Shown here one piece after another: positions 1 to 28,446 of a stretch of DNA of 64,000 bases. The position numbers and the translations under genes are program-made. Within the stretch, counting starts at the first letter, position 1, and each line of letters opens with the position of its first letter. The notes beneath the pieces were generated by a model. That model worked only from the letters and a program-made list of their open reading frames with translations, did not search any database and was not told the DNA's origin. This DNA is from Escherichia coli (GTDB lineage Bacteria; Pseudomonadota; Gammaproteobacteria; Enterobacterales; Enterobacteriaceae): assembly GCF_041886205.1 (NCBI RefSeq), contig NZ_CP169029.1, one strand, 5' to 3'.

Positions 1-4126
<4,126 letters not shown>

Positions 4127-4289
4127 TTAAACGGCTTAACAAAAATCCAGTAATATGGATTAAAAAGCAGACTAAACCCCAAATATTTCTTATGTTTTAC
4201 TTTAGACCTATTCACGGTGGTTATTGTGTGCAAATACGCCTCTTGTTACAACCTTAACCCCAATGACCGATTTTCGGGAGAGCGACACC

Positions 4290-4931
4290 ATGAGTTTATT
4301 TGATAAAAAGCATCTGGTTTCCCCCGCCGATGCCCTGCCTGGACGTAACACCCCGATGCCCGTAGCCACGCTGCATGCGGTCAACGGTCACTCAATGACC
4401 AATGTACCTGACGGAATGGAGATTGCCATTTTTGCGATGGGTTGTTTCTGGGGTGTGGAGCGTCTGTTCTGGCAGTTACCCGGCGTTTACAGCACCGCCG
4501 CAGGCTATACCGGCGGCTATACGCCAAAAAATCCGACTTATCGGGAAGTGTGCTCCGGTGATACGGGTCATGCCGAAGCGGTACGCATTGTTTACGATCC
4601 TTCCGTCATCAGCTATGAGCAGTTGCTACAGGTATTTTGGGAGAATCACGATCCCGCCCAGGGAATGCGTCAGGGCAATGACCACGGCACGCAGTATCGT
4701 TCAGCGATTTATCCGCTGACCCCAGAACAGGATGCCGCAGCTCGCGCCAGTCTGGAACGTTTTCAGGCGGCGATGCTTGCCGCCGATGACGATCGTCGCA
4801 TCACCACGGAAATCGCTAACGCCACACCGTTTTATTATGCCGAAGATGACCACCAGCAATATCTGCATAAAAACCCGTATGGTTACTGTGGAATTGGCGG
4901 AATTGGCGTCTGTCTGCCGCCGGAAGCATAG
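4290..4931 (+). CDS. msrA: peptide methionine sulfoxide reductase MsrA
   Basis: ORF 4224..4931, start taken at internal ATG ([24 protein letters not shown]); GCFWG motif present. Confidence 0.93.
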
Positions 4932-4978
4932 CGTTACGGGTACAAATGTAGATTGTCGATAAAGTGCTATTTGTCTAT

Positions 4979-5079
4979 GCCGGATGCGGCGTAAACGCCT
5001 TACCAGGCCTACAAAATCGTCCAAATTCAATATATTGCATGGACTGCGTAGGCGGCCTGATCGGCATAGCGCATCAGGC
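4979..5079. repeat. REP/BIME-type extragenic palindromes (two inverted REP units)
   Basis: tgccggatgcggcgtaaacgccttaccaggcctac followed by inverted gtaggcggcctgatcggcatagcgcatcaggca. Confidence 0.7.
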
Positions 5080-5256
5080 AGTTTTGCATTTATTAGCAGC
5101 CTGAATTTTAACCCTCTGGCGGCTTTACAGTACCTTACGCTATACTAGCCACTGAAAATGCCGGTTCACTTTCTTCGAATCGGCTTTCAATGTGTATTTC
5201 ACACAAATTAATCAACTTCCCCTTCCGAGGATCTGGCCTGAAAGGTCGGATAAGAT

Positions 5257-6603
5257 ATGTTAAACAGTATTTTAGTCATACTCTGCTTGATCGCTGTAAG
5301 TGCGTTCTTCTCGATGTCCGAGATCTCACTTGCCGCCTCACGCAAAATCAAACTTAAACTGCTGGCTGATGAAGGCAATATAAATGCCCAACGCGTTCTG
5401 AATATGCAGGAAAATCCCGGCATGTTCTTTACCGTGGTCCAAATCGGTCTGAACGCAGTGGCGATTCTCGGCGGTATCGTCGGTGATGCGGCATTTTCTC
5501 CAGCTTTTCACAGCCTGTTCTCCCGCTATATGTCGGCAGAGCTCTCTGAGCAACTGAGCTTTATTCTCTCTTTCTCGTGTTAGTGACTGGCATGTTTATC
5601 CTGTTTGCGGATTTAACCCCGAAACGCATCGGTATGATTGCGCCAGAAGCTGTGGCTTTGCGTATCATCAACCCGATGCGCTTCTGCCTGTACGTTTGCA
5701 CCCCGCTGGTGTGGTTCTTCAACGGCCTGGCGAACATGATCTTCCGTATTTTCAAACTGCCAATGGTACGTAAAGATGACATCACTTCTGATGACATCTA
5801 CGCGGTAGTGGAAGCCGGTGCGCTGGCGGGCGTGTTACGTAAACAGGAACACGAGCTGATTGAAAACGTCTTTGAGCTGGAATCCCGAACCGTTCCGTCT
5901 TCAATGACACCGCGTGAAAACGTGATTTGGTTTGATCTCCACGAAGATGAGCAAAGTCTGAAGAATAAGGTGGCGGAACATCCGCACTCTAAGTTCCTCG
6001 TCTGTAATGAAGATATTGACCACATCATCGGCTATGTCGATTCTAAAGACCTGCTGAACCGCGTGCTGGCTAACCAAAGCCTGGCACTGAACAGCGGCGT
6101 ACCAAATTCGCAACACGCTGATTGTGCCGGATACGTTAACCCTTTCAGAGGCGTTGGAAAGTTTTAAAACCGCAGGTGAAGACTTCGCGGTGATCATGAA
6201 CGAGTACGCGCTGGTGGTGGGGATCATCACCCTCAACGACGTGATGACCACGCTGATGGGCGATCTGGTCGGTCAGGGTCTGGAAGAGCAGATTGTCGCC
6301 CGTGATGAGAACTCATGGCTGATTGACGGCGGCACTCCGATTGACGACGTCATGCGCGTGCTGGATATTGACGAGTTCCCGCAGTCGGGCAACTACGAAA
6401 CCATCGGCGGCTTTATGATGTTTATGCTGCGTAAGATCCCGAAACGCACCGATTCGGTGAAATTCGCCGGCTACAAATTTGAAGTGGTGGATATCGATAA
6501 CTACCGCATCGACCAGCTGCTGGTGACCCGGATCGACAGCAAGGCCACCGCCCTTTCGCCAAAACTGCCTGACGCTAAAGATAAAGAAGAAAGCGTCGCG
6601 TAA
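5257..6603 (+). pseudogene. ytfL: ytfL (UPF0053/CNNM-type inner membrane protein, CBS + CorC domains); two frame breaks (near 5576-5580 and near 6100-6125)
   Basis: Three consecutive plus-strand ORFs 5257..5583, 5577..6167, 6124..6603 in frames 1,0,1; tandem GT duplication tcgtgtta at first junction. Confidence 0.8.
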
Positions 6604-18555: not shown

Positions 18556-19764
18556 TCAGGCTGTCGCCTGAATCATTTCGGTGGGTTCCTGCTTCAACGA
18601 GCGGCCTGACTGCACCATCTCTCCACAGGCAAGAACGGCGTGCCCCGCCGCTAAAATGTTACGAGCGCCATTTACATCGGCGTTCGCTGTATATCCACAT
18701 GCCTGGCATCTGAATTTACTTTGTGACAGGCGATTTTCTTTCGCTGTATGACCACAGCACGCGCATCGCTGGCTTGTGTACGCTGGCGGAACAGCAAGCA
18801 CCTGACCGCCACGCCAGAGCTGCTTGTACTCAAGCTGGCGGCGCATTTCATACCAGCCCTGATCCAGTATCGTACGGTTTAAACCTGATTTTGCCCGGAC
18901 ATTGCGACCCGGCTGGCTGACCGTACCCGCTGCTGACTTTGACATGTTGCTGACCTTCAAATCCTCAATGACTATCATTGCGTGGTTTTTGCTGACGGTC
19001 GTTGTGACTTTGTGAAGGTAGTCCCTGCGGATATTTGCGATACGGGAATGCAGTCGCTGTATTTTGCGTTCCTGCTTCTGCCAGTTATTGCTGAATTTGA
19101 CCTTGCGGCTTAACTGTCGCTGAAGTCTCGCCAGCTTCTTCTGGTTTTTCTGAAAACTGTTTACAGGCTCAAAGACTGTGCCATCTGACAGCGTGGCGAG
19201 TTTAGCCACGCCAGCATCCAGCCCGACCATTGATGCTGAAGGGTGAACCGGAGTTGATACTTCACTTTCTGTCTGAATACTGATGTACCACTTACCGCAG
19301 GACTGGCTGACAGTGACATTTTTCACAACTCCCGTGACCTGACGGCTATTCCGGTAGCGCATCCAGCCCAGTTTCGGCAGAAAAATACGGCTGTTTTCCT
19401 GATCGAGCTTAACGCCCTGCGGGTAGCGGAATGCATCATTCTGTCCCCGCTTTTTGAATCGGGGAAAAGCAGCCCGCTTCTGGAAGAAGTTTTTGTAAGC
19501 CCGCTCAAGGTCTTTCAGTGACTGTTGCAATGGCTGTGACGGGGCATCTTTAAGCCATTGCGTTTCAGTGGCATTTTTCCACTCAACCAGCCAGGAAGCC
19601 ATTTTTCCGTAAGGGATGTATTTATTACCGGCCTCATGATTCTCATTCTGACGTGCCAGAGCACGATTGAAAACGAAACGACATGCGCCTGCGAAGCGCC
19701 TCATTTCACGCTCCTGTTGACCACCGGGTCTTAACTGGAATTTAAATGCCTGTAGTCGTTTCAC
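18556..19764 (-). CDS. tnpB: TnpB (IS605 OrfB) RuvC-like RNA-guided endonuclease, 402 aa, apparent GTG start
   Basis: RuvC-I D in [10 protein letters not shown], RuvC-II E in [11 protein letters not shown], zinc finger CACCGH...CQACGY, RuvC-III D in ADVNGARNI. Confidence 0.85.
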
Positions 19765-19771
19765 AGGCCAA

Positions 19772-20386
19772 ATGATACTTTGGTCTGTGAAAAAAGAAAC
19801 CGATATCCGGCGTGGAAGGCATTGTGTTTTCCTGATGCATGTTCACCTGGTCTTTGTCACCAAATACCGACGCCAGATTTTTGACCATGACGCGACAGAA
19901 AAACTACGCACTTACTTTTCAAAGGTATGTGCTGATTTTGAAGCTGAACTGGTTGAAATGGATGGCGAACCAGATCACGTCCATTTGTTAATTAACTATC
20001 CTCCCAAACTGGCGATATCCAGTCTGGTAAACAGCCTCAAAGGCGTATCGGGTAGGTTACTGCGACGAGATCGACCAGATATTGCAGTCAGGTATTACTA
20101 CAAAGGCGTTTTGTGGAGTCCTGGCTATTTTGCCAGTAGCTGCGGAGGTGCGCCAATATCCGCCATCCGTCAATACATTGAACAACAGCAAACACCTGGT
20201 CAGGTGGAAAACCGCGCCGTATATCCCCGCCCTGAAGGACGGGGTTTTACGGCGCACCGGATAAACCAGGCCAAGCGTATGCTGGTTGATCCAATAATAT
20301 CCCCCAAGCGCAGCAATATTAATATTCACCTGCAATGGGTCGATATCTGGCTTAAAAATATTGTGTTTCTTTCCTTCATCCAATAA
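19772..20386 (+). CDS. tnpA: TnpA, IS200-type HUH Y1 transposase; ORF lacks a stop inside the predicted element and reads through the left end
   Basis: KYRR motif, HUH motif DHVHLLI, C-terminal Tyr in AIRQYIEQQ; start ATG only 7 bp from divergent tnpB start; functional protein probably ends near 20230-20260. Confidence 0.75.
20225..20244 (-). repeat. Left-end subterminal hairpin of IS200/IS605 element
   Basis: Top strand CCCCGTCC-TTCA-GGGCGGGG; shares loop and 12-nt core with right-end hairpin. Confidence 0.6.
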
Positions 20387-20604: not shown

Positions 20605-21037
20605 ATTACATACCGCACAACAAGAATGTATGGTGTAAGGCGTGGAAGTCATTTTCTTCCCGGGTGCATCGTTATATCCGTGATGAGCGATTTTTGATAT
20701 TAATATCTTTCACCATCCGCTATTTTTACTACTTCAGAAAACAAACTTATTTTTATTAATATCGATTCTTTTTCTGTAAGCATTTAACTACGATATTTAT
20801 AAAAACATTAAACAGGTAACATTACAATGACATTACCAACGACTATTTATTCATTTCGTGCATATTTACCTCGTTTTTCGTCCACCGACAAACCAGTAAA
20901 ATTAAAATTTCATGAATATGCCCGTGCTACATTACTGCCAAATCGTGGAAGAGATCATAATTGCGATGGCAGACGTACTGTTGTGAACCGCCCCGGGAAT
21001 CCTGGAGACTAAACTTCCTGAGAAAGAGGTAAACAGG

Positions 21038-21364
21038 ATGACTAAAAATACTCGTTTTTCCCCCGAAGTCCGTCAACGGGCAGTCCGTATGGTTCTGGAA
21101 AGTCAGAGCGAATATGACTCACAATGGGCGACAATTTGTTCCATTGCTCCAAAGATTGGCTGTACGCCGGAGACTCTGCGTGTCTGGGTTCGCCAGCATG
21201 AGCGGGATACCGGGGGCGGTGATGGAGGGCTCACCACCGCTGAACGTCAGCGTCTGAAAGAGCTGGAACGTGAAAATCGTGAACTGCGCCGCAGTAACGA
21301 TATCCTTCGCCAGGCTTCCGCTTATTTTGCGAAGGCGGAGTTCGACCGCCTCTGGAAAAAATGA
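21038..21364 (+). CDS. IS629 OrfA (HTH transposase subunit, 108 aa)
   Basis: [31 protein letters not shown]...; leucine-zipper-like C-terminus. Confidence 0.9.
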
Positions 21365-22251
21365 TGCCACTGCTGGATAAGCTGCGTGAGCAGTACGGGG
21401 TCGGACCGCTATGCAGCGAACTGCATATTGCCCCGTCAACGTATTACCACTGTCAGCAACAGCGACATCATCCGGATAAACGCAGTGCCCGTGCGCAGCG
21501 CGATGACTGGCTGAAGAAAGAGATACAGCGCGTATACGATGAAAATCACAAGGTATACGGTGTGCGTAAAGTCTGGCGTCAGTTGTTACGGGAAGGTATC
21601 AGAGTGGCCAGATGCACTGTGGCACGTCTCATGGCGGTTATGGGACTTGCCGGTGTTCTCCGGGGTAAAAAGGTCCGTACGACCATCAGCCGGAAAGCCG
21701 TTGCCGCAGGCGACCGCGTAAACCGTCAGTTCGTGGCAGAACGACCTGACCAGCTGTGGGTGGCTGATTTTACTTACGTCAGCACATGGCGGGGCTTCGT
21801 CTATGTGGCGTTCATCATTGATGTGTTTGCCGGATACATCGTGGGGTGGCGGGTCTCATCGTCCATGGAAACGACATTCGTGCTGGATGCACTGGAGCAG
21901 GCGTTATGGGCCCGTCGACCGTCCGGCACGGTCCATCACAGTGATAAAGGTTCTCAGTATGTATCGCTGGCCTACACACAGCGGCTTAAGGAAGCCGGAT
22001 TACTGGCATCAACAGGAAGTACAGGCGACTCGTATGACAACGCGATGGCGGAGAGCATCAATGGTCTTTACAAAGCGGAGGTAATACACCGTAAGAGCTG
22101 GAAAAACCGTGCAGAAGTGGAACTGGCCACACTCACGTGGGTGGACTGGTATAACAATCGACGATTGCTGGAAAGGCTGGGCCATACTCCTCCGGCAGAA
22201 GCAGAAAAAGCTTATTATGCTTCCATCGGAAACGATGATCTGGCAGCCTGA
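21361..22251 (+). CDS. IS629 OrfB (DDE integrase/transposase catalytic subunit, 296 aa); overlaps orfA, typical -1 frameshift arrangement
   Basis: rve-type core ...[49 protein letters not shown]...[11 protein letters not shown]...[15 protein letters not shown]. Confidence 0.9.
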
Positions 22252-22954
22252 GTTCACAGATAAAACACTCTCCAGGAAACCCGGGGCGGTTCAGTTGAGA
22301 TCCACAAACTAGATCTCTCAGACTGGCAAGCATTCAATAAACTAGCGATGGCGTGTAATGCTTACGATGGAATAACAATGAATGGTGATAATTCTTTTGG
22401 ATGGAACCATGAAGCTACATTAGATAATATTCACGCCCAGAAATACAATAAAGCTTACGCGGGTGCGAGGTTAACCGCAGAACTGAAATATTTATTGCAA
22501 GATGTCGAATCCTTCGAACCCAACAGTAAATACACAATACATGAGGTTGTTTTGGGACCTGGTTATGGTACTCCAGATTATACCGGCCAAACGATAGGAT
22601 ACGTTGTAACCCTTCCTGCCCAAATGCCTAATTGCTGGTCATCTGAACTACCAACAATCGATCTTTATATCGACCAACTTCGCACTGTTACAGGCGTTTC
22701 TAATGCCCTCGGATTCATCATTGCTGCATTGCTAAACGCGTATTCTGATTTACCCCATGATTTGAAAATTGGTCTACGTTCCTTATCAAATTCAGCAGCA
22801 ATCTACTCGGGTTTGGGTTTCGAGCGAGTGCCGCAGGACCGAGACATAAGGAGTGATCGTATGCATCTAACGCCAGCAAACCATCCTGACTTATGGACAC
22901 AAGAGAATGGTGAATGGATCTACTTGCGAAACTAATACCTGACGAAAAATAGAA

Positions 22955-24463: not shown

Positions 24464-24771
24464 TTATTCAGCCTCCTGTCTGGGTCAGCCGAATCCCGGG
24501 GAGGCAAGGAACGTGTTAAAGGTCGGCTGAAAAATGACGCGTTATAGTACTTGTATGCCCCGCTAAACTCAAGGGCAGCCGACAAATAAATCTCATCTTT
24601 CGCTCAAAAGAACTAACTCGCTGATTTGAAGTTCATCACATTCCGTCACAGTGTTTTTTCGAACAACTGCATCAGAAATGGTCACCATCAACTTCTTTAT
24701 CATTGATTAAAATTAAATCAGAAGATCATCACAGAGGAGAGCACACAAAGTCAGCCGTCGAGGAGGTATCT

Positions 24772-25047
24772 ATGTTCAGTCGAGTTTTAGCCCTTCTGGC
24801 TGTGCTTTTGCTAAGTGCAAATACATGGGCAGCCATTGAAATTAATAACCACCAGGCCAGAAACATGGATGATGTGCAAAGCTTAGGCGTGATTTATATC
24901 AATCATAATTTCGCCACTGAAAGCGAAGCACGTCAGGCATTAAATGAAGAGACAGATGCGCAGGGCGCAACGTACTACCACGTAATTCTGATGCGGGAAC
25001 CGGGGAGTAACGGCAATATGCACGCCAGCGCGGATATTTATCGCTAG
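24772..25047 (+). CDS. yjfY: YjfY (DUF1471/YdgH-BhsA-McbA family small periplasmic protein, 91 aa)
   Basis: ORF 24703..25047, start at MFSRVLALLAVLLLSANTWA signal peptide. Confidence 0.85.
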   Translation: MFSRVLALLAVLLLSANTWAAIEINNHQARNMDDVQSLGVIYINHNFATESEARQALNEETDAQGATYYHVILMREPGSNGNMHASADIYR

Positions 25048-25087
25048 CACCAGGTATAACCAACGAAACATTGCCATAGTTTGCTTT

Positions 25088-25111
25088 GCCCCCTTCGCAG
25101 GGGGCTTTTTT
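25088..25111 (+). terminator. Rho-independent terminator downstream of yjfY
   Basis: gccccc ttcgca gggggc hairpin followed by tttttt. Confidence 0.8.
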
Positions 25112-25121
25112 ATACGGTTAT

Positions 25122-25673
25122 TCACCGAATTGCGACTTCCGGATCTGGCTCATGAGTAATGCGATTACGTAAGTCGCGGCGCATAATCTCTATTATCCAG
25201 AACCAGAAAATATGCCCCAGGATTTCAGACGCATATTCGTCAAAAGGCAATTGAGTGAGCGGCGGCGTTAAATTCAGCGCCGGGCAAAATATACCGTGGA
25301 CTGCCACTGTCACAATAAGCCCTGCTAATATCCCCTGCCATAATTTCACTTTCGGGAAAATTTCCGCGACAACACAATACCCTATCGCAAAAACCAGTGA
25401 GAAGATGATATGCGTCACCATCACCGGGTTGATAATATGTTCCGAGAATGTGTACACAGTTTGGGTTGGGTTGATACCTAAATAATCTCGTAGAAAGATA
25501 TACGGCGGGTTAAATTCATCGCGACCACCGGAAAATGTGCGCGGTGGCAAGGGGACTTCCGCTCCCCATTTAACAAATGCTGAAATAATTCCTGAAAGTA
25601 CACCCACAAGTAACGCAACGCCATAGCGGCGACGCTGCGGATCCGTTCTGACAAACAATCCTTTGATAGCCAT
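25122..25673 (-). CDS. hypothetical inner membrane protein, YagU/DUF1440-like (183 aa, 3-4 predicted TM helices); not recalled at this position in K-12
   Basis: [47 protein letters not shown]...; hydrophobic segments; family assignment from memory only. Confidence 0.55.
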
Positions 25674-25767
25674 AAAGCACCTGATGTTGATGATTTTATT
25701 AACTGGAGAGGCCCCGGAATCAGACCAATTACATCCCGCAGGAGGTAATAATTCCGGGGCGCACTGC

Positions 25768-26454
25768 TTACTTCTGCCCGTAATAGGCGTTAGGACCGTG
25801 CTTACGCATGAAGTGTTTATTCATGAGGAAGCTGTCGATGTGATTCAGTTGTGGGTTAATACTGCGCGCAATCCACGCCATTTTCGCCACTTCTTCCATC
25901 ACTACCGCGTTATGCACCGCATCGTGAGCATCTTTCCCCCAGGCGAACGGCCCGTGCTGATACACCACAATCCCCGGCGTATGCAGCGGCTCGGCGTCAC
26001 CCAGCGTTTCGATAATCACTTTGCCGGTGTTCAGTTCATACTCGCCCTGCACCTCTTCTTCGCTTAATCCGCGCGTACACGGGATGTCGCCAAAGAAGTA
26101 GTCGGCGTGCGTAGTGCCTAACGCCGGGATCGCCAGCCCCGCCTGCGCCCATGCGGTAGCATGAGTGGAGTGGGTATGGACAATGCCGCCAAGCGACGAG
26201 TAACGACGGTAGAGTTCGAGATGCGTCGCGGTGTCGGAAGATGGGCGATACTCCCCTTCCACCACCCTGCCGCTCATATCAACCACCACCATATCGTCTG
26301 CTTTCATGGTTTCGTAGGCAACGCCGCTGGGCTTGATCACCACCAGCCCGCGTTCGCGGTCGATGGCGCTGACATTGCCCCAGGTAAAGGTCACCAGCCC
26401 GTAGCGCGGCAGATCCATGTTGGCTTCAAATACCTGCTGTTTCAGCTTTTGCAT
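25768..26454 (-). CDS. ulaF: L-ribulose-5-phosphate 4-epimerase UlaF
   Basis: ORF 25768..26502, start at [21 protein letters not shown] (228 aa). Confidence 0.92.
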
Positions 26455-27308
26455 TATGCCGCCTCCACCATGCCAGCTTTGGCCATGCGCGCTTTCACCC
26501 AATCACGCGCTTTCGCCACTTCCGCCGCCGGGTCTTCCGCCGTTTCGCTCCACATCTCAATCAGGTACGGCCCGCAATAGCCACTCTGCTTGAGCGTTTC
26601 GAAGCAACGTTCGAAATCCACCACACCTTCGCCAAACGGCACGTTTTTGAAGACGCCCGGTTTGGTGTCTTTCACATGCACCGCGACGATATGCCCGATT
26701 CCGGCCTGCAACTCCATCTGTACGTCGTTGTCCCACGCCGACAGGTTGCCGATATCCGGGTAGAGCTGGAACCACGGGTTGTTGAGATAGTGCGCGTAAC
26801 CCAGCGCCTTGCTGATGGAGTTCATCAACGGATAATCCATGATCTCCATCGCCAGCGTCACCTGCGCGCGGCTCGCCATCTCAACGCTCTCTTTCAGGCC
26901 GTCACGGAAACGACGACGCGTTTCGTTATTGGCTTCCTGATAGTAAACGTCATAACCCGCCAGCTGGATCACGCGAATGCCAACGTCCTGGGCGAACTGG
27001 ATGGCTTTACGCATAATCTCCAGCCCCTGCGCCCGCACCGCGTCATCTTCGCTGCCCAACGGAAAACGACGATGGGCAGAAAGGCACATGGACGGCACAC
27101 GCACGCCGGTTTCAACAATCGCATTCACCAGCGCCAGACGCTGCTCGCGGCTCCAGTCGAGGCGCGAAAGGCGCTCGTCCGTTTCATCTACCGACATCTC
27201 GACAAAATCAAAGCCCAACGTTTTTGCCAGTTGCAGGCGTTCCAGCCAGCACTCCCCGGCGGGGAGCGCTTTTTCATAGATGCCAAGCGGGATTTGTTTG
27301 GACAACAT
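26454..27308 (-). CDS. ulaE: L-ribulose-5-phosphate 3-epimerase UlaE
   Basis: 284-aa [28 protein letters not shown]. Confidence 0.92.
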
Positions 27309-27317
27309 ATCCGCTCC

Positions 27318-27968
27318 TTAGCCCCACAGTTCAGCGATGGAACGTTTGAACTGACGTGCGGCTTCCACCGGAGAAGCGGCATCACGGATACTACGGCCCG
27401 CGATAAAGACGTGAATCGGAATACCCTTGAACAGCGGCAGATCTTCCAGCGCCAGGCCTCCGGTGACGGTGACTTTGAAGCCCATATCGGAAAGACGTTT
27501 GATCGCGGTGATGTCCGCTTCGCCCCACGCCACGCCTGCGGCCTGCGCGTCACGGCTGCGGTGATAAACCACCTGCTGAATACCTGCGTCGCGCCACTGT
27601 TGCGCCTGTTCCCAGGTCCAGTAACCGGTCAGTTCGATCTGCACGTCGCCGTTAAACTCTTTTGCCACGTCCAGCGCACCTTTGGCGGTGTTGATATCCG
27701 CACAGCAAATTACGGTCACCCAGTCAGCATTGGCTTCGAAGCACATACGAGAAAGAATTTTGCCCGCATCGGCAATTTTGGCGTCTGCCAGCACGATTTT
27801 GTGCGGGTAAAGCGCTTTCAGATCGCGAACCGCACGCACGCCTTCGCCCACGCACAGAATGGTGCCCACTTCGATAATGTCAACTTCTTCGGCAATCAGG
27901 CGAGTGGTTTCGTAGGCGCTATCCATAGTCTGGTTGTCCAGCGCGACTTGCAACATCGGTAATGACAT
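27318..27968 (-). CDS. ulaD: 3-keto-L-gulonate-6-phosphate decarboxylase UlaD
   Basis: ORF 27318..28121, start at [30 protein letters not shown] (216 aa). Confidence 0.92.
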
Positions 27969-27981
27969 CTTCAATTCCTTC

Positions 27982-28446
27982 TTAAGCTGCCGCGTTGGTG
28001 CGGTCAATGAGATCCAGTACTTCCTGCTCGGTACGGCAGGCACGTAAACGGTCGAAATTTTCTTCATCTTCAAACAGGTTGACGATCTGCATGATGCCCA
28101 CTTCCTGGTGCGTGTTGGCATCGACCGCCGCCATGGTGATGAGGATATCCACCGGGTCGTTATCTTCGTGGTTGAACTCCAGCGGCTTTTTCAGCGTCAC
28201 CAGCGCAAAACCGGTTTTCTTAACGCCCTCTTCCGGGCGACCGTGCGGCATTGCCAGGCCTGGTGCGAGCACAAAGTACGGACCATGCTGTTCAACCGCA
28301 TCCAGAATCGCCTGGTAGTAACGCGGCTCGACAACATCCGCCGCCACCAGCAGGTCAACGCCGATTTTTACTGCGTCCTGCCATGTCTCAGCTTCAGCCT
28401 GCAGGCGGATGGATTTATTCTCCGCCAGCGAATCACGTAATTTCAT
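27982..28446 (-). CDS. ulaC: ascorbate PTS EIIA component UlaC
   Basis: 154-aa [29 protein letters not shown]. Confidence 0.92.

Follow-up and report, generated by a model that had tools for sequence, protein, structure and literature searches.

A YagU-family membrane-protein gene next to ulaF in Escherichia coli, likely an old resident of the ula locus that was lost from the K-12-type haplotype

In a 64,000-nucleotide stretch of Escherichia coli DNA, hereafter the window, we examined an open reading frame (ORF) that lies on the minus strand between yjfY and ulaF. The ORF starts with an ATG at position 25673 and ends with a stop codon at 25122-25124. The coding sequence, stop codon included, occupies 25122-25673 and encodes a 183-residue protein of the DUF1440/YagU family, an assignment based on the ORF, its match to Pfam PF07274 and RefSeq. 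An original prediction had described a 183-residue minus-strand ORF between these two genes with a particular N-terminus, and its coordinates matched ours exactly. The same-strand upstream neighbour is ulaF (25768-26454, minus strand), the gene for L-ribulose-5-phosphate 4-epimerase, as identified by NCBIfam PRK12348 (507 bits) and by the RefSeq annotation of an identical region. In K-12, ulaF is the final gene of the ulaABCDEF (sgaTBAHUE) operon. The convergent downstream neighbour is yjfY (24772-25047, plus strand), which encodes a DUF1471 or YdgH-BhsA-McbA-like periplasmic protein (Pfam PF07338, E = 5e-20; RefSeq). A terminator scan placed the intrinsic terminator of yjfY, a GC-rich hairpin followed by T6, at 25088-25111 on the plus strand. 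It is the sole hairpin downstream of the DUF1440 gene, whose stop codon lies 10 nt past the T-run, and the gene had indeed been predicted to sit just after this terminator. On the other side, a Shine-Dalgarno-like AGGTG (25678-25682, minus strand) was read from the sequence 4 nt before the ATG. A second RNA hairpin (25708-25764, minus strand), with perfect 10-nt arms at 25711-25720 and 25751-25760, follows right after the ulaF stop codon and precedes the DUF1440 gene.

The family relationship of the encoded protein was examined by profile and pairwise searches. The match to PF07274 (DUF1440) scored 153.2 bits (E = 5e-45) against a gathering cut-off of 34.7 bits, with residues 29-163 covering profile positions 1-135 of 135. 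BLASTP against K-12 YagU (b0287), from which the family was founded, gave 56% identity and 71% positives (E = 5e-81) with one 21-residue gap. The resemblance to the YagU/DUF1440 family that had been guessed at is borne out by these two results. A search of the NCBIfam models with the 183-residue protein returned no match; for weaker family relationships, Pfam at E ≤ 10 returned only noise and the PADLOC defence models returned nothing. The DUF1440 family itself is small, with 263 representative clusters at E ≤ 1e-3 among 1.84 billion. All the sequence criteria that we applied identify the ula-linked gene as a DUF1440/YagU gene. It is also an ordinary and already annotated member of that family. 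RefSeq names the product of the identical gene in strain ECO13 "YagU family protein" (WP_000985137.1), and the exact window protein has been deposited many times as a DUF1440 domain-containing or YagU family protein of E. coli. Both RefSeq and UniRef already catalogue the gene. Carriers retain the canonical yagU as well, with two matching places per record, and because they hold both genes the ula-linked gene is a paralog of yagU and not an allele of it.

The two paralogs share full-length similarity, the same Pfam family and a predicted four-helix inner-membrane architecture. They have in common a conserved sequence motif, a His in transmembrane helix (TM) 2, another in TM3, an S-E pair in TM4 and a C-terminal motif. 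They differ in size, with 183 residues for the ula-linked protein and 204 for K-12 YagU, and a stretch of about 21 residues in the first periplasmic loop of YagU, which contains both Cys, has no counterpart in the shorter protein. Their loci differ too, the ula-linked gene standing at the end of the ula operon and K-12 yagU beside paoABC/ecp. An AlphaFold2 model built on a 46-sequence alignment showed a four-TM bundle (pLDDT 89.3, pTM 0.85) with helices at residues 17-38, 83-105, 107-132 and 144-173, and with a short helix and a beta-hairpin in the loop at 39-82. No solved structural relative of this model was found. Positive charges cluster at the N-terminus (5 Lys/Arg in the first 16 residues), in the TM2-TM3 turn and in the C-terminal RRDLRNR, and this distribution would place both termini in the cytoplasm. 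The four long helices and the charged N-terminus agree with the hydrophobic helices and basic N-terminus that had been noticed earlier. In the 46-sequence alignment, which reaches down to 25% identity, P44, G114, G118, H126 and E150 are invariant across the family, the near-invariant residues include K35, E39, H88 and S149, and the window protein has the consensus residue at all nine columns. K35, E39, H88, H126, S149 and E150 lie, by sequence position, no more than about six residues from the periplasmic ends of the helices. These conserved polar residues, placed by sequence position only, may form a single periplasm-facing site.

We explored the possibility that the ORF was a decaying remnant or a chance reading frame that is not expressed. 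The region upstream shows no promoter-like site and most E. coli manage without the gene, as might be expected of a remnant. However, the annotated CDS was intact in all 603 sampled carriers, with no pseudogene flags among the matches listed, and the ratio dN/dS was 0.02-0.10 in comparisons with orthologs out to Hafnia, which contradicts decay. ulaF gave values in the same range. The full-length Pfam match and the confident structure prediction likewise speak against a remnant, which we consider highly improbable. Judged by the full-length DUF1440 match and the low dN/dS, the ORF is no chance frame. It is a genuine gene that is selectively maintained.

The distribution of the gene within E. 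coli was determined next to its absence from K-12. In the K-12 derivative C600, ulaF and yjfY are convergent and adjoining with a spacer of 129 nt, and the gene is absent, just as the original prediction had stated. Pairwise alignment to C600 delimited a presence/absence segment of 589 bp (25112-25700), which comprises the CDS, the 10 nt after its stop codon and a 27-nt leader with the ribosome-binding site. K-12 and the window are identical through the yjfY terminator up to position 25111, so that this terminator forms the left border of the indel, and C600 has TTGAAAAAC (9 nt) in place of the segment. We found the segment in 603 (about 11%) of 5,426 complete E. coli genomes, among them 55989 and O104:H4, and the carriers fell into two allele groups, one at least 99% and the other about 98% identical to the window. 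A K-12-type empty junction was found at full length in 4,820 complete genomes (about 89%). The same empty junction is shared by K-12, NCTC 86, ATCC 11775 and AW1.7 and occurs also in O157 Sakai, EC958 and ECOR29. The comparison of the ulaF-yjfY interval across E. coli genomes, as had been suggested, thus yielded 603 filled and 4,820 empty sites with one type of empty junction. The locus is accordingly polymorphic in E. coli, with two cleanly separated states and only one kind of junction.

The order of ulaF and a DUF1440 gene recurs in other genera. A scan of GTDB species representatives turned up close orthologs, 72-98% identical, in many Enterobacterales. In E. whittamii, Pseudocitrobacter faecalis, two Hafnia species and two Budvicia species, the ortholog is immediately preceded by ulaD-E-F in the same orientation. 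Single-protein look-ups added a locus labelled S. enterica, a 4.44-Mb chromosome resembling S. bongori, whose DUF1440 protein clusters with S. bongori, and Pseudescherichia, in all of which ulaA-F are followed by the DUF1440 gene. The short-form orthologs from Salmonella enterica, S. bongori, Pseudocitrobacter, Pseudescherichia, Hafnia and Budvicia are 76-90% identical, are 183-187 residues long and stand directly after ulaF on the same strand, whereas their downstream neighbour varies among yjfY, an MFS transporter and others. For the Salmonella YjfY allele, which is very common at 22,718 index blocks, eight distinct contexts were sampled, and the gene was found in all of them; YjfY clusters at 90% identity merge all Escherichia. 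Compared with the ulaABCDEF operon of K-12, which as experimentally defined excludes a DUF1440 gene, the gene lies just beyond ulaF in the same orientation and is linked to the operon in several genera. Most orthologs are located away from ula, in Citrobacter, Klebsiella, Raoultella, Serratia, Providencia, Rahnella and Vibrio, so the linkage is not obligatory. The Citrobacter ortholog, for example, has a symporter and a gene for a MetC-like lyase 240 nt upstream. When the neighbourhoods of 53 ortholog loci were clustered, no recurrent partner other than ula emerged, and the other contexts were heterogeneous.

These distributions allow two histories of the locus. The original prediction had spoken of a small accessory insertion. 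That the gene is accessory in E. coli is confirmed by its presence in 603 of 5,426 genomes, but that it was inserted is not supported, given the ulaF-DUF1440 order in other genera, the co-divergence of the gene with its flanks and the lack of marks of mobility. Since these same three observations favour an old resident, we consider it likely, from sequence comparison, that the gene has long stood at the end of the ula locus and was deleted in the K-12-type haplotype. Most likely, one deletion of about 590 bp would have given rise to that haplotype, which is held by about 89% of E. coli. Among E. coli, about 11% of complete genomes would have kept the gene, as would Salmonella, E. whittamii, Pseudocitrobacter, Pseudescherichia, Hafnia and Budvicia. 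The alternative is that the gene was gained by a small insertion into, or introgressed at, an ancestrally empty ulaF-yjfY spacer and was spread by recombination in the flanks. The low frequency of carriers among complete E. coli genomes (11%) is in line with such a gain, as is the occurrence of empty yjfY-ulaF junctions with a K-12-like layout of two hairpins in Citrobacter freundii-type and Enterobacter loci. Furthermore, among GTDB representatives the gene was found in E. whittamii and in no other Escherichia species nor in the S. enterica representative. Since the gene is missing from these other representatives and the Citrobacter and Enterobacter junctions are empty, ancestral presence requires several losses. 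No credible remnant of the gene was detected in the empty junctions of K-12, Citrobacter and Enterobacter, where tblastn gave only short matches without significance, the best of them in an Enterobacter spacer at E = 0.016. Against an insertion stands the occupation of the identical site in Salmonella, Pseudocitrobacter, Pseudescherichia, Hafnia and Budvicia. Moreover, the borders at 25112 and 25700 are free of repeats, direct as well as inverted, and of any IS, integrase or tRNA; the repeats found elsewhere were short and at chance level. The 589-bp segment has no other ORF with a mobile-element function.

Sequence divergence bears on the same question. Compared with E. whittamii, identity was 93.3% for the gene, 94.3% for ulaF and 94.2% for yjfY, with dS of 0.31 for the gene and 0.26 for ulaF. 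The corresponding identities for S. enterica were 78.6%, 83.3% and 81.2%. No donor-type discordance between the gene and its flanks was seen relative to either species and dS was comparable; as the divergence of the gene from both equals that of the flanks, no recent donor is evident. The GC content of the gene (about 0.46) is below that of the ula genes (about 0.58), as might be expected of an acquired gene, but the adjoining yjfY is equally low. In a neighbour-joining tree of the short-form proteins, the members were mostly coherent by bacterial family, with the ula-linked ones in two separate parts, and a gene tree that largely tracks bacterial families argues against an insertion. Between the carrier alleles of the window and 55989, dS was 0.023 for the gene but 0.159 for ulaF and 0.092 for yjfY. 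This low value for the gene suggests that the presence haplotype moved by recombination within E. coli, and it would also fit a single haplotype that spread recently in the species. On balance we regard an insertion into an empty spacer as unlikely, and loss of an old resident as the preferred history. The linkage itself could have spread horizontally, since the ula operon as such moves between genera: ulaC-F of Pseudocitrobacter are 93-95.5% identical to those of E. coli, compared with about 72-74% for yjfY and the DUF1440 gene.

Two further attempts to trace the event were set aside. A deletion by T-run microhomology was simulated on the 55989 allele; the length of the K-12 junction was matched, but by eye only some 15 of 23 positions were identical, and we take this as suggestive and not as evidence. 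A recombination island around the gene was sought as well. The window differs from both K-12 and 55989 by about 2% along all 64 kb, with the ula region only slightly more divergent, and no import tract was delimited; the gene thus does not lie in a separate block of imported DNA.

To gain insights into how the gene might be expressed, we examined the interval between ulaF and its ATG. RNAalifold on nine sequences gave 17 pairs in the ulaF hairpin, 8 of them with compensatory changes, and the hairpin is kept in Escherichia, Salmonella and Pseudocitrobacter. Its arms read CTGCGG/CCGCAG in the gene-less haplotype and CCCCGG/CCGGGG in the haplotype with the gene, and these compensatory differences indicate that the two haplotypes are old. 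The tail of the hairpin in the window, CCUCUCCAGUU, has no U-run, whereas the tail reads GUUUUUC in E. coli lacking the gene, and Pseudocitrobacter has U8. The proposed deletion would have put the ulaF hairpin beside a U-run. The arrangement varies among the ula-linked loci. The E. coli and E. whittamii carriers have no U-run, whereas the locus labelled S. enterica has a hairpin with a moderately U-rich tail and Pseudocitrobacter combines the hairpin with U8 and a leader of 140 nt. Hafnia and Pseudescherichia, in contrast, have no hairpin, and the gene begins 22-27 nt after ulaF with a good ribosome-binding site; orthologs with such a gap have GGGTGG, AAGGAAGG or AAGGAGGG at the Shine-Dalgarno place. 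In the window, the ulaF hairpin is probably not a full terminator but serves as a leaky or stabilising structure.

Neither a sigma-70-like site nor a CpxR box (GTAAA-N5-GTAAA, at most 2 mismatches) was found between ulaF and the ATG. A single CpxR-like match occurs close by, in the 3' end of the gene, and counts across the window were near chance. The lack of both a recognisable promoter and a U-run behind the hairpin points to read-through from the ula promoter. Whether the gene is indeed transcribed with the ula operon in this way is, in our estimate, evenly balanced. If so, and this is the simplest interpretation, it would be a distal ula operon gene whose expression is attenuated by the hairpin in Escherichia. 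The U8 in Pseudocitrobacter, which makes the hairpin a real terminator there, argues against obligatory co-transcription. The regulation also appears to differ from that of K-12 yagU, since no motif resembling a CpxR box lies upstream. K-12 yagU is monocistronic, is strongly induced by external but not by cytoplasmic acidification (PMC2270276) and has a CpxR ChIP-exo peak (PMC7657598), and is accordingly an acid-induced CpxR target, whereas no promoter or CpxR-like box was detected for the ula-linked gene. Regulation by CpxR is a trait of this one member of the family and does not define the family.

Two models of function were weighed. One proposes a YagU-like protection against acid or of the envelope, coupled to the fermentation of an acidic sugar. 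It draws on analogy with K-12 yagU, whose mutant survived at pH 2 at 19% compared with 70%, a roughly threefold reduction (PMC1626474), and we put it forward tentatively, as a possible role. The main rival to it is a dedicated role in ascorbate utilisation. In that model, the protein would be a seventh ascorbate component ("UlaH") and not a general acid-stress protein; it might pair with the UlaA permease in the membrane, or face the periplasm as an enzyme or exporter for ascorbate, dehydroascorbate or a toxic by-product. Adjacency to ulaF on the same strand is kept across three Enterobacterales families. In Hafnia and Pseudescherichia the two genes are just 22-27 nt apart, with a ribosome-binding site, and no promoter of its own was found for the DUF1440 gene. 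The invariant His and Glu inside the membrane helices and selection as strong as that on ulaF would also suit such a component. Yet K-12 grows on ascorbate with ulaA-G alone, and ula lacks a gene at this site in 89% of E. coli and in Citrobacter and Enterobacter. To our knowledge, no enzymatic or transport step of the known ascorbate pathway is missing for the gene to fill. Most orthologs are in unrelated contexts and the nearest characterised relative has an acid-resistance phenotype that is unrelated to ascorbate (PMC1626474). We consider a dedicated ascorbate component rather unlikely and retain the acid or envelope role as the favoured model. Taken as a whole, the explanation that we find best, and moderately probable, is that an old short-form paralog of YagU at the 3' end of ula was lost in the K-12 haplotype, may be expressed by read-through and may serve in acid or envelope protection.

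A bolder proposal can be derived from the same data. The Ula system of Enterobacterales may ancestrally have consisted of seven linked genes, of which K-12 would have a truncated version. The lost DUF1440 protein, with its putative periplasm-facing His/Glu/Lys site, might then act in ascorbate fermentation, for instance as a sensor or buffer of periplasmic acid, or in the handling of ascorbate or dehydroascorbate at the membrane. We hold this to be doubtful. If true, the orphan YagU family would for the first time have a physiological context.

In the literature searched, yagU appeared only in transcriptomics and acid-resistance papers and DUF1440 only in incidental mentions. No paper among those searched joined ulaF and yjfY, and neither the ula linkage nor the probable loss in K-12 was found mentioned. 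The finding as originally written is already known, and the linkage and the probable loss add useful context but do not amount to a discovery. They imply that, at a well-studied operon, the K-12 reference probably represents a derived, deleted state. They also imply that the ula locus of Salmonella and of E. coli of the O104:H4/55989 type, among others, contains an extra conserved membrane-protein gene that has gone unexamined in work on K-12. The DUF1440 family has no known mechanism and is known so far only from an acid-resistance phenotype. The ula linkage is the only recurrent genomic context that we found for its short-form subgroup, and this context points to ascorbate, anaerobiosis and acid. 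A DUF1440 protein was also predictive of the rate of milk acidification in a machine-learning study of Lactococcus lactis (PMC7959382), a weak and correlative hint toward a role in acid.

The L-ascorbate operon and the genes next to it were compared between the E. coli window and Pseudocitrobacter faecalis. The DNA of ulaC to ulaF was 93–95.5% identical between the two (window 25768–28446; L006, the P. faecalis locus, about 2500–4860). The adjoining yjfY (window 24772–25047, plus strand) was 71.6% identical and the DUF1440 gene (window 25122–25673, minus strand) 74.2%, and the farther flanks of ula were about 74–81% identical. The values for yjfY, the DUF1440 gene and the farther flanks are normal for divergence between genera. 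The ula operon itself looks like it was replaced fairly recently between Pseudocitrobacter and E. coli by homologous recombination.

Variation at the locus within E. coli was examined over window 25122–28446. For ulaC, identity of the window to K-12 was 92.7%; the dS of ulaF between the window and strain 55989 was 0.159. The DUF1440 gene was nearly identical in these same two carriers, the window and 55989, with a dS of 0.023. The ula genes are unusually polymorphic among E. coli, and their combination with a near-identical DUF1440 gene in two carriers suggests that recombination has made this region a mosaic. Strain STK78-E (L003, 4157–5100) has wholly lost ulaB to ulaF; its yjfY overlaps a ulaA pseudogene (PTS IIC) that is truncated and misses the C-terminus, and ulaG and ulaR are retained.

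An RNA hairpin lies immediately 3' of the ulaF stop codon (window 25708–25764, minus strand). It is kept in Escherichia, Salmonella and Pseudocitrobacter, with compensatory changes at 8 of the 17 pairs. Two compensated stem positions distinguish the E. coli haplotype that lacks the DUF1440 gene from the one that bears it, and a U-run follows the stem in the former but not in the latter.

Citrobacter spp. (L007–L011 and L053; about 2300–5560) carry a DUF1440 ortholog, about 82% identical, away from the ula locus, and their yjfY–ulaF site is empty. The ortholog is located 240 nt 3' of two genes, one resembling a cation:dicarboxylate/amino-acid symporter and the other a MetC-like PLP-dependent lyase, both labelled from reading the sequences rather than from family searches. 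The yjfY–ulaF junction is also empty in four loci labelled Salmonella enterica (L076–L079), which have the YjfY allele P0399 and, between rpsF and yjfY, a gene of the TauE family. This layout is shared with Citrobacter freundii (L080–L082); the Salmonella-labelled loci represent either a Citrobacter-like version of the region in some Salmonella or mislabelled records.

The DUF1440 gene of the window was also compared with K-12 yagU (L004, 2976–3590). In the long-form YagU proteins of K-12, Klebsiella and Pasteurellaceae, the first periplasmic loop has about 20–30 extra residues including two cysteines, which may constitute a disulfide-stabilised module. This insertion is missing from all of the ula-linked short forms and divides two subfamilies.

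Two insertion sequences missing from K-12 are situated upstream of rplI, in the region of a TetR pseudogene and yjfZ. The IS609-like IS200/IS605-type unit (window 18556–20386), with tnpA and tnpB/InsQ, is also found in 55989; the other is an IS1203-like IS3-family element (about 20990–22290). The stretch holding both is covered to at least 80% in only 4 complete genomes. Strain H32 (NZ_CP184262.1) is the best match to window 24600–26600, with 100% identity in two pieces over 3.2 kb, and has an IS5-like ISKpn26 element within the matching 2-kb interval.
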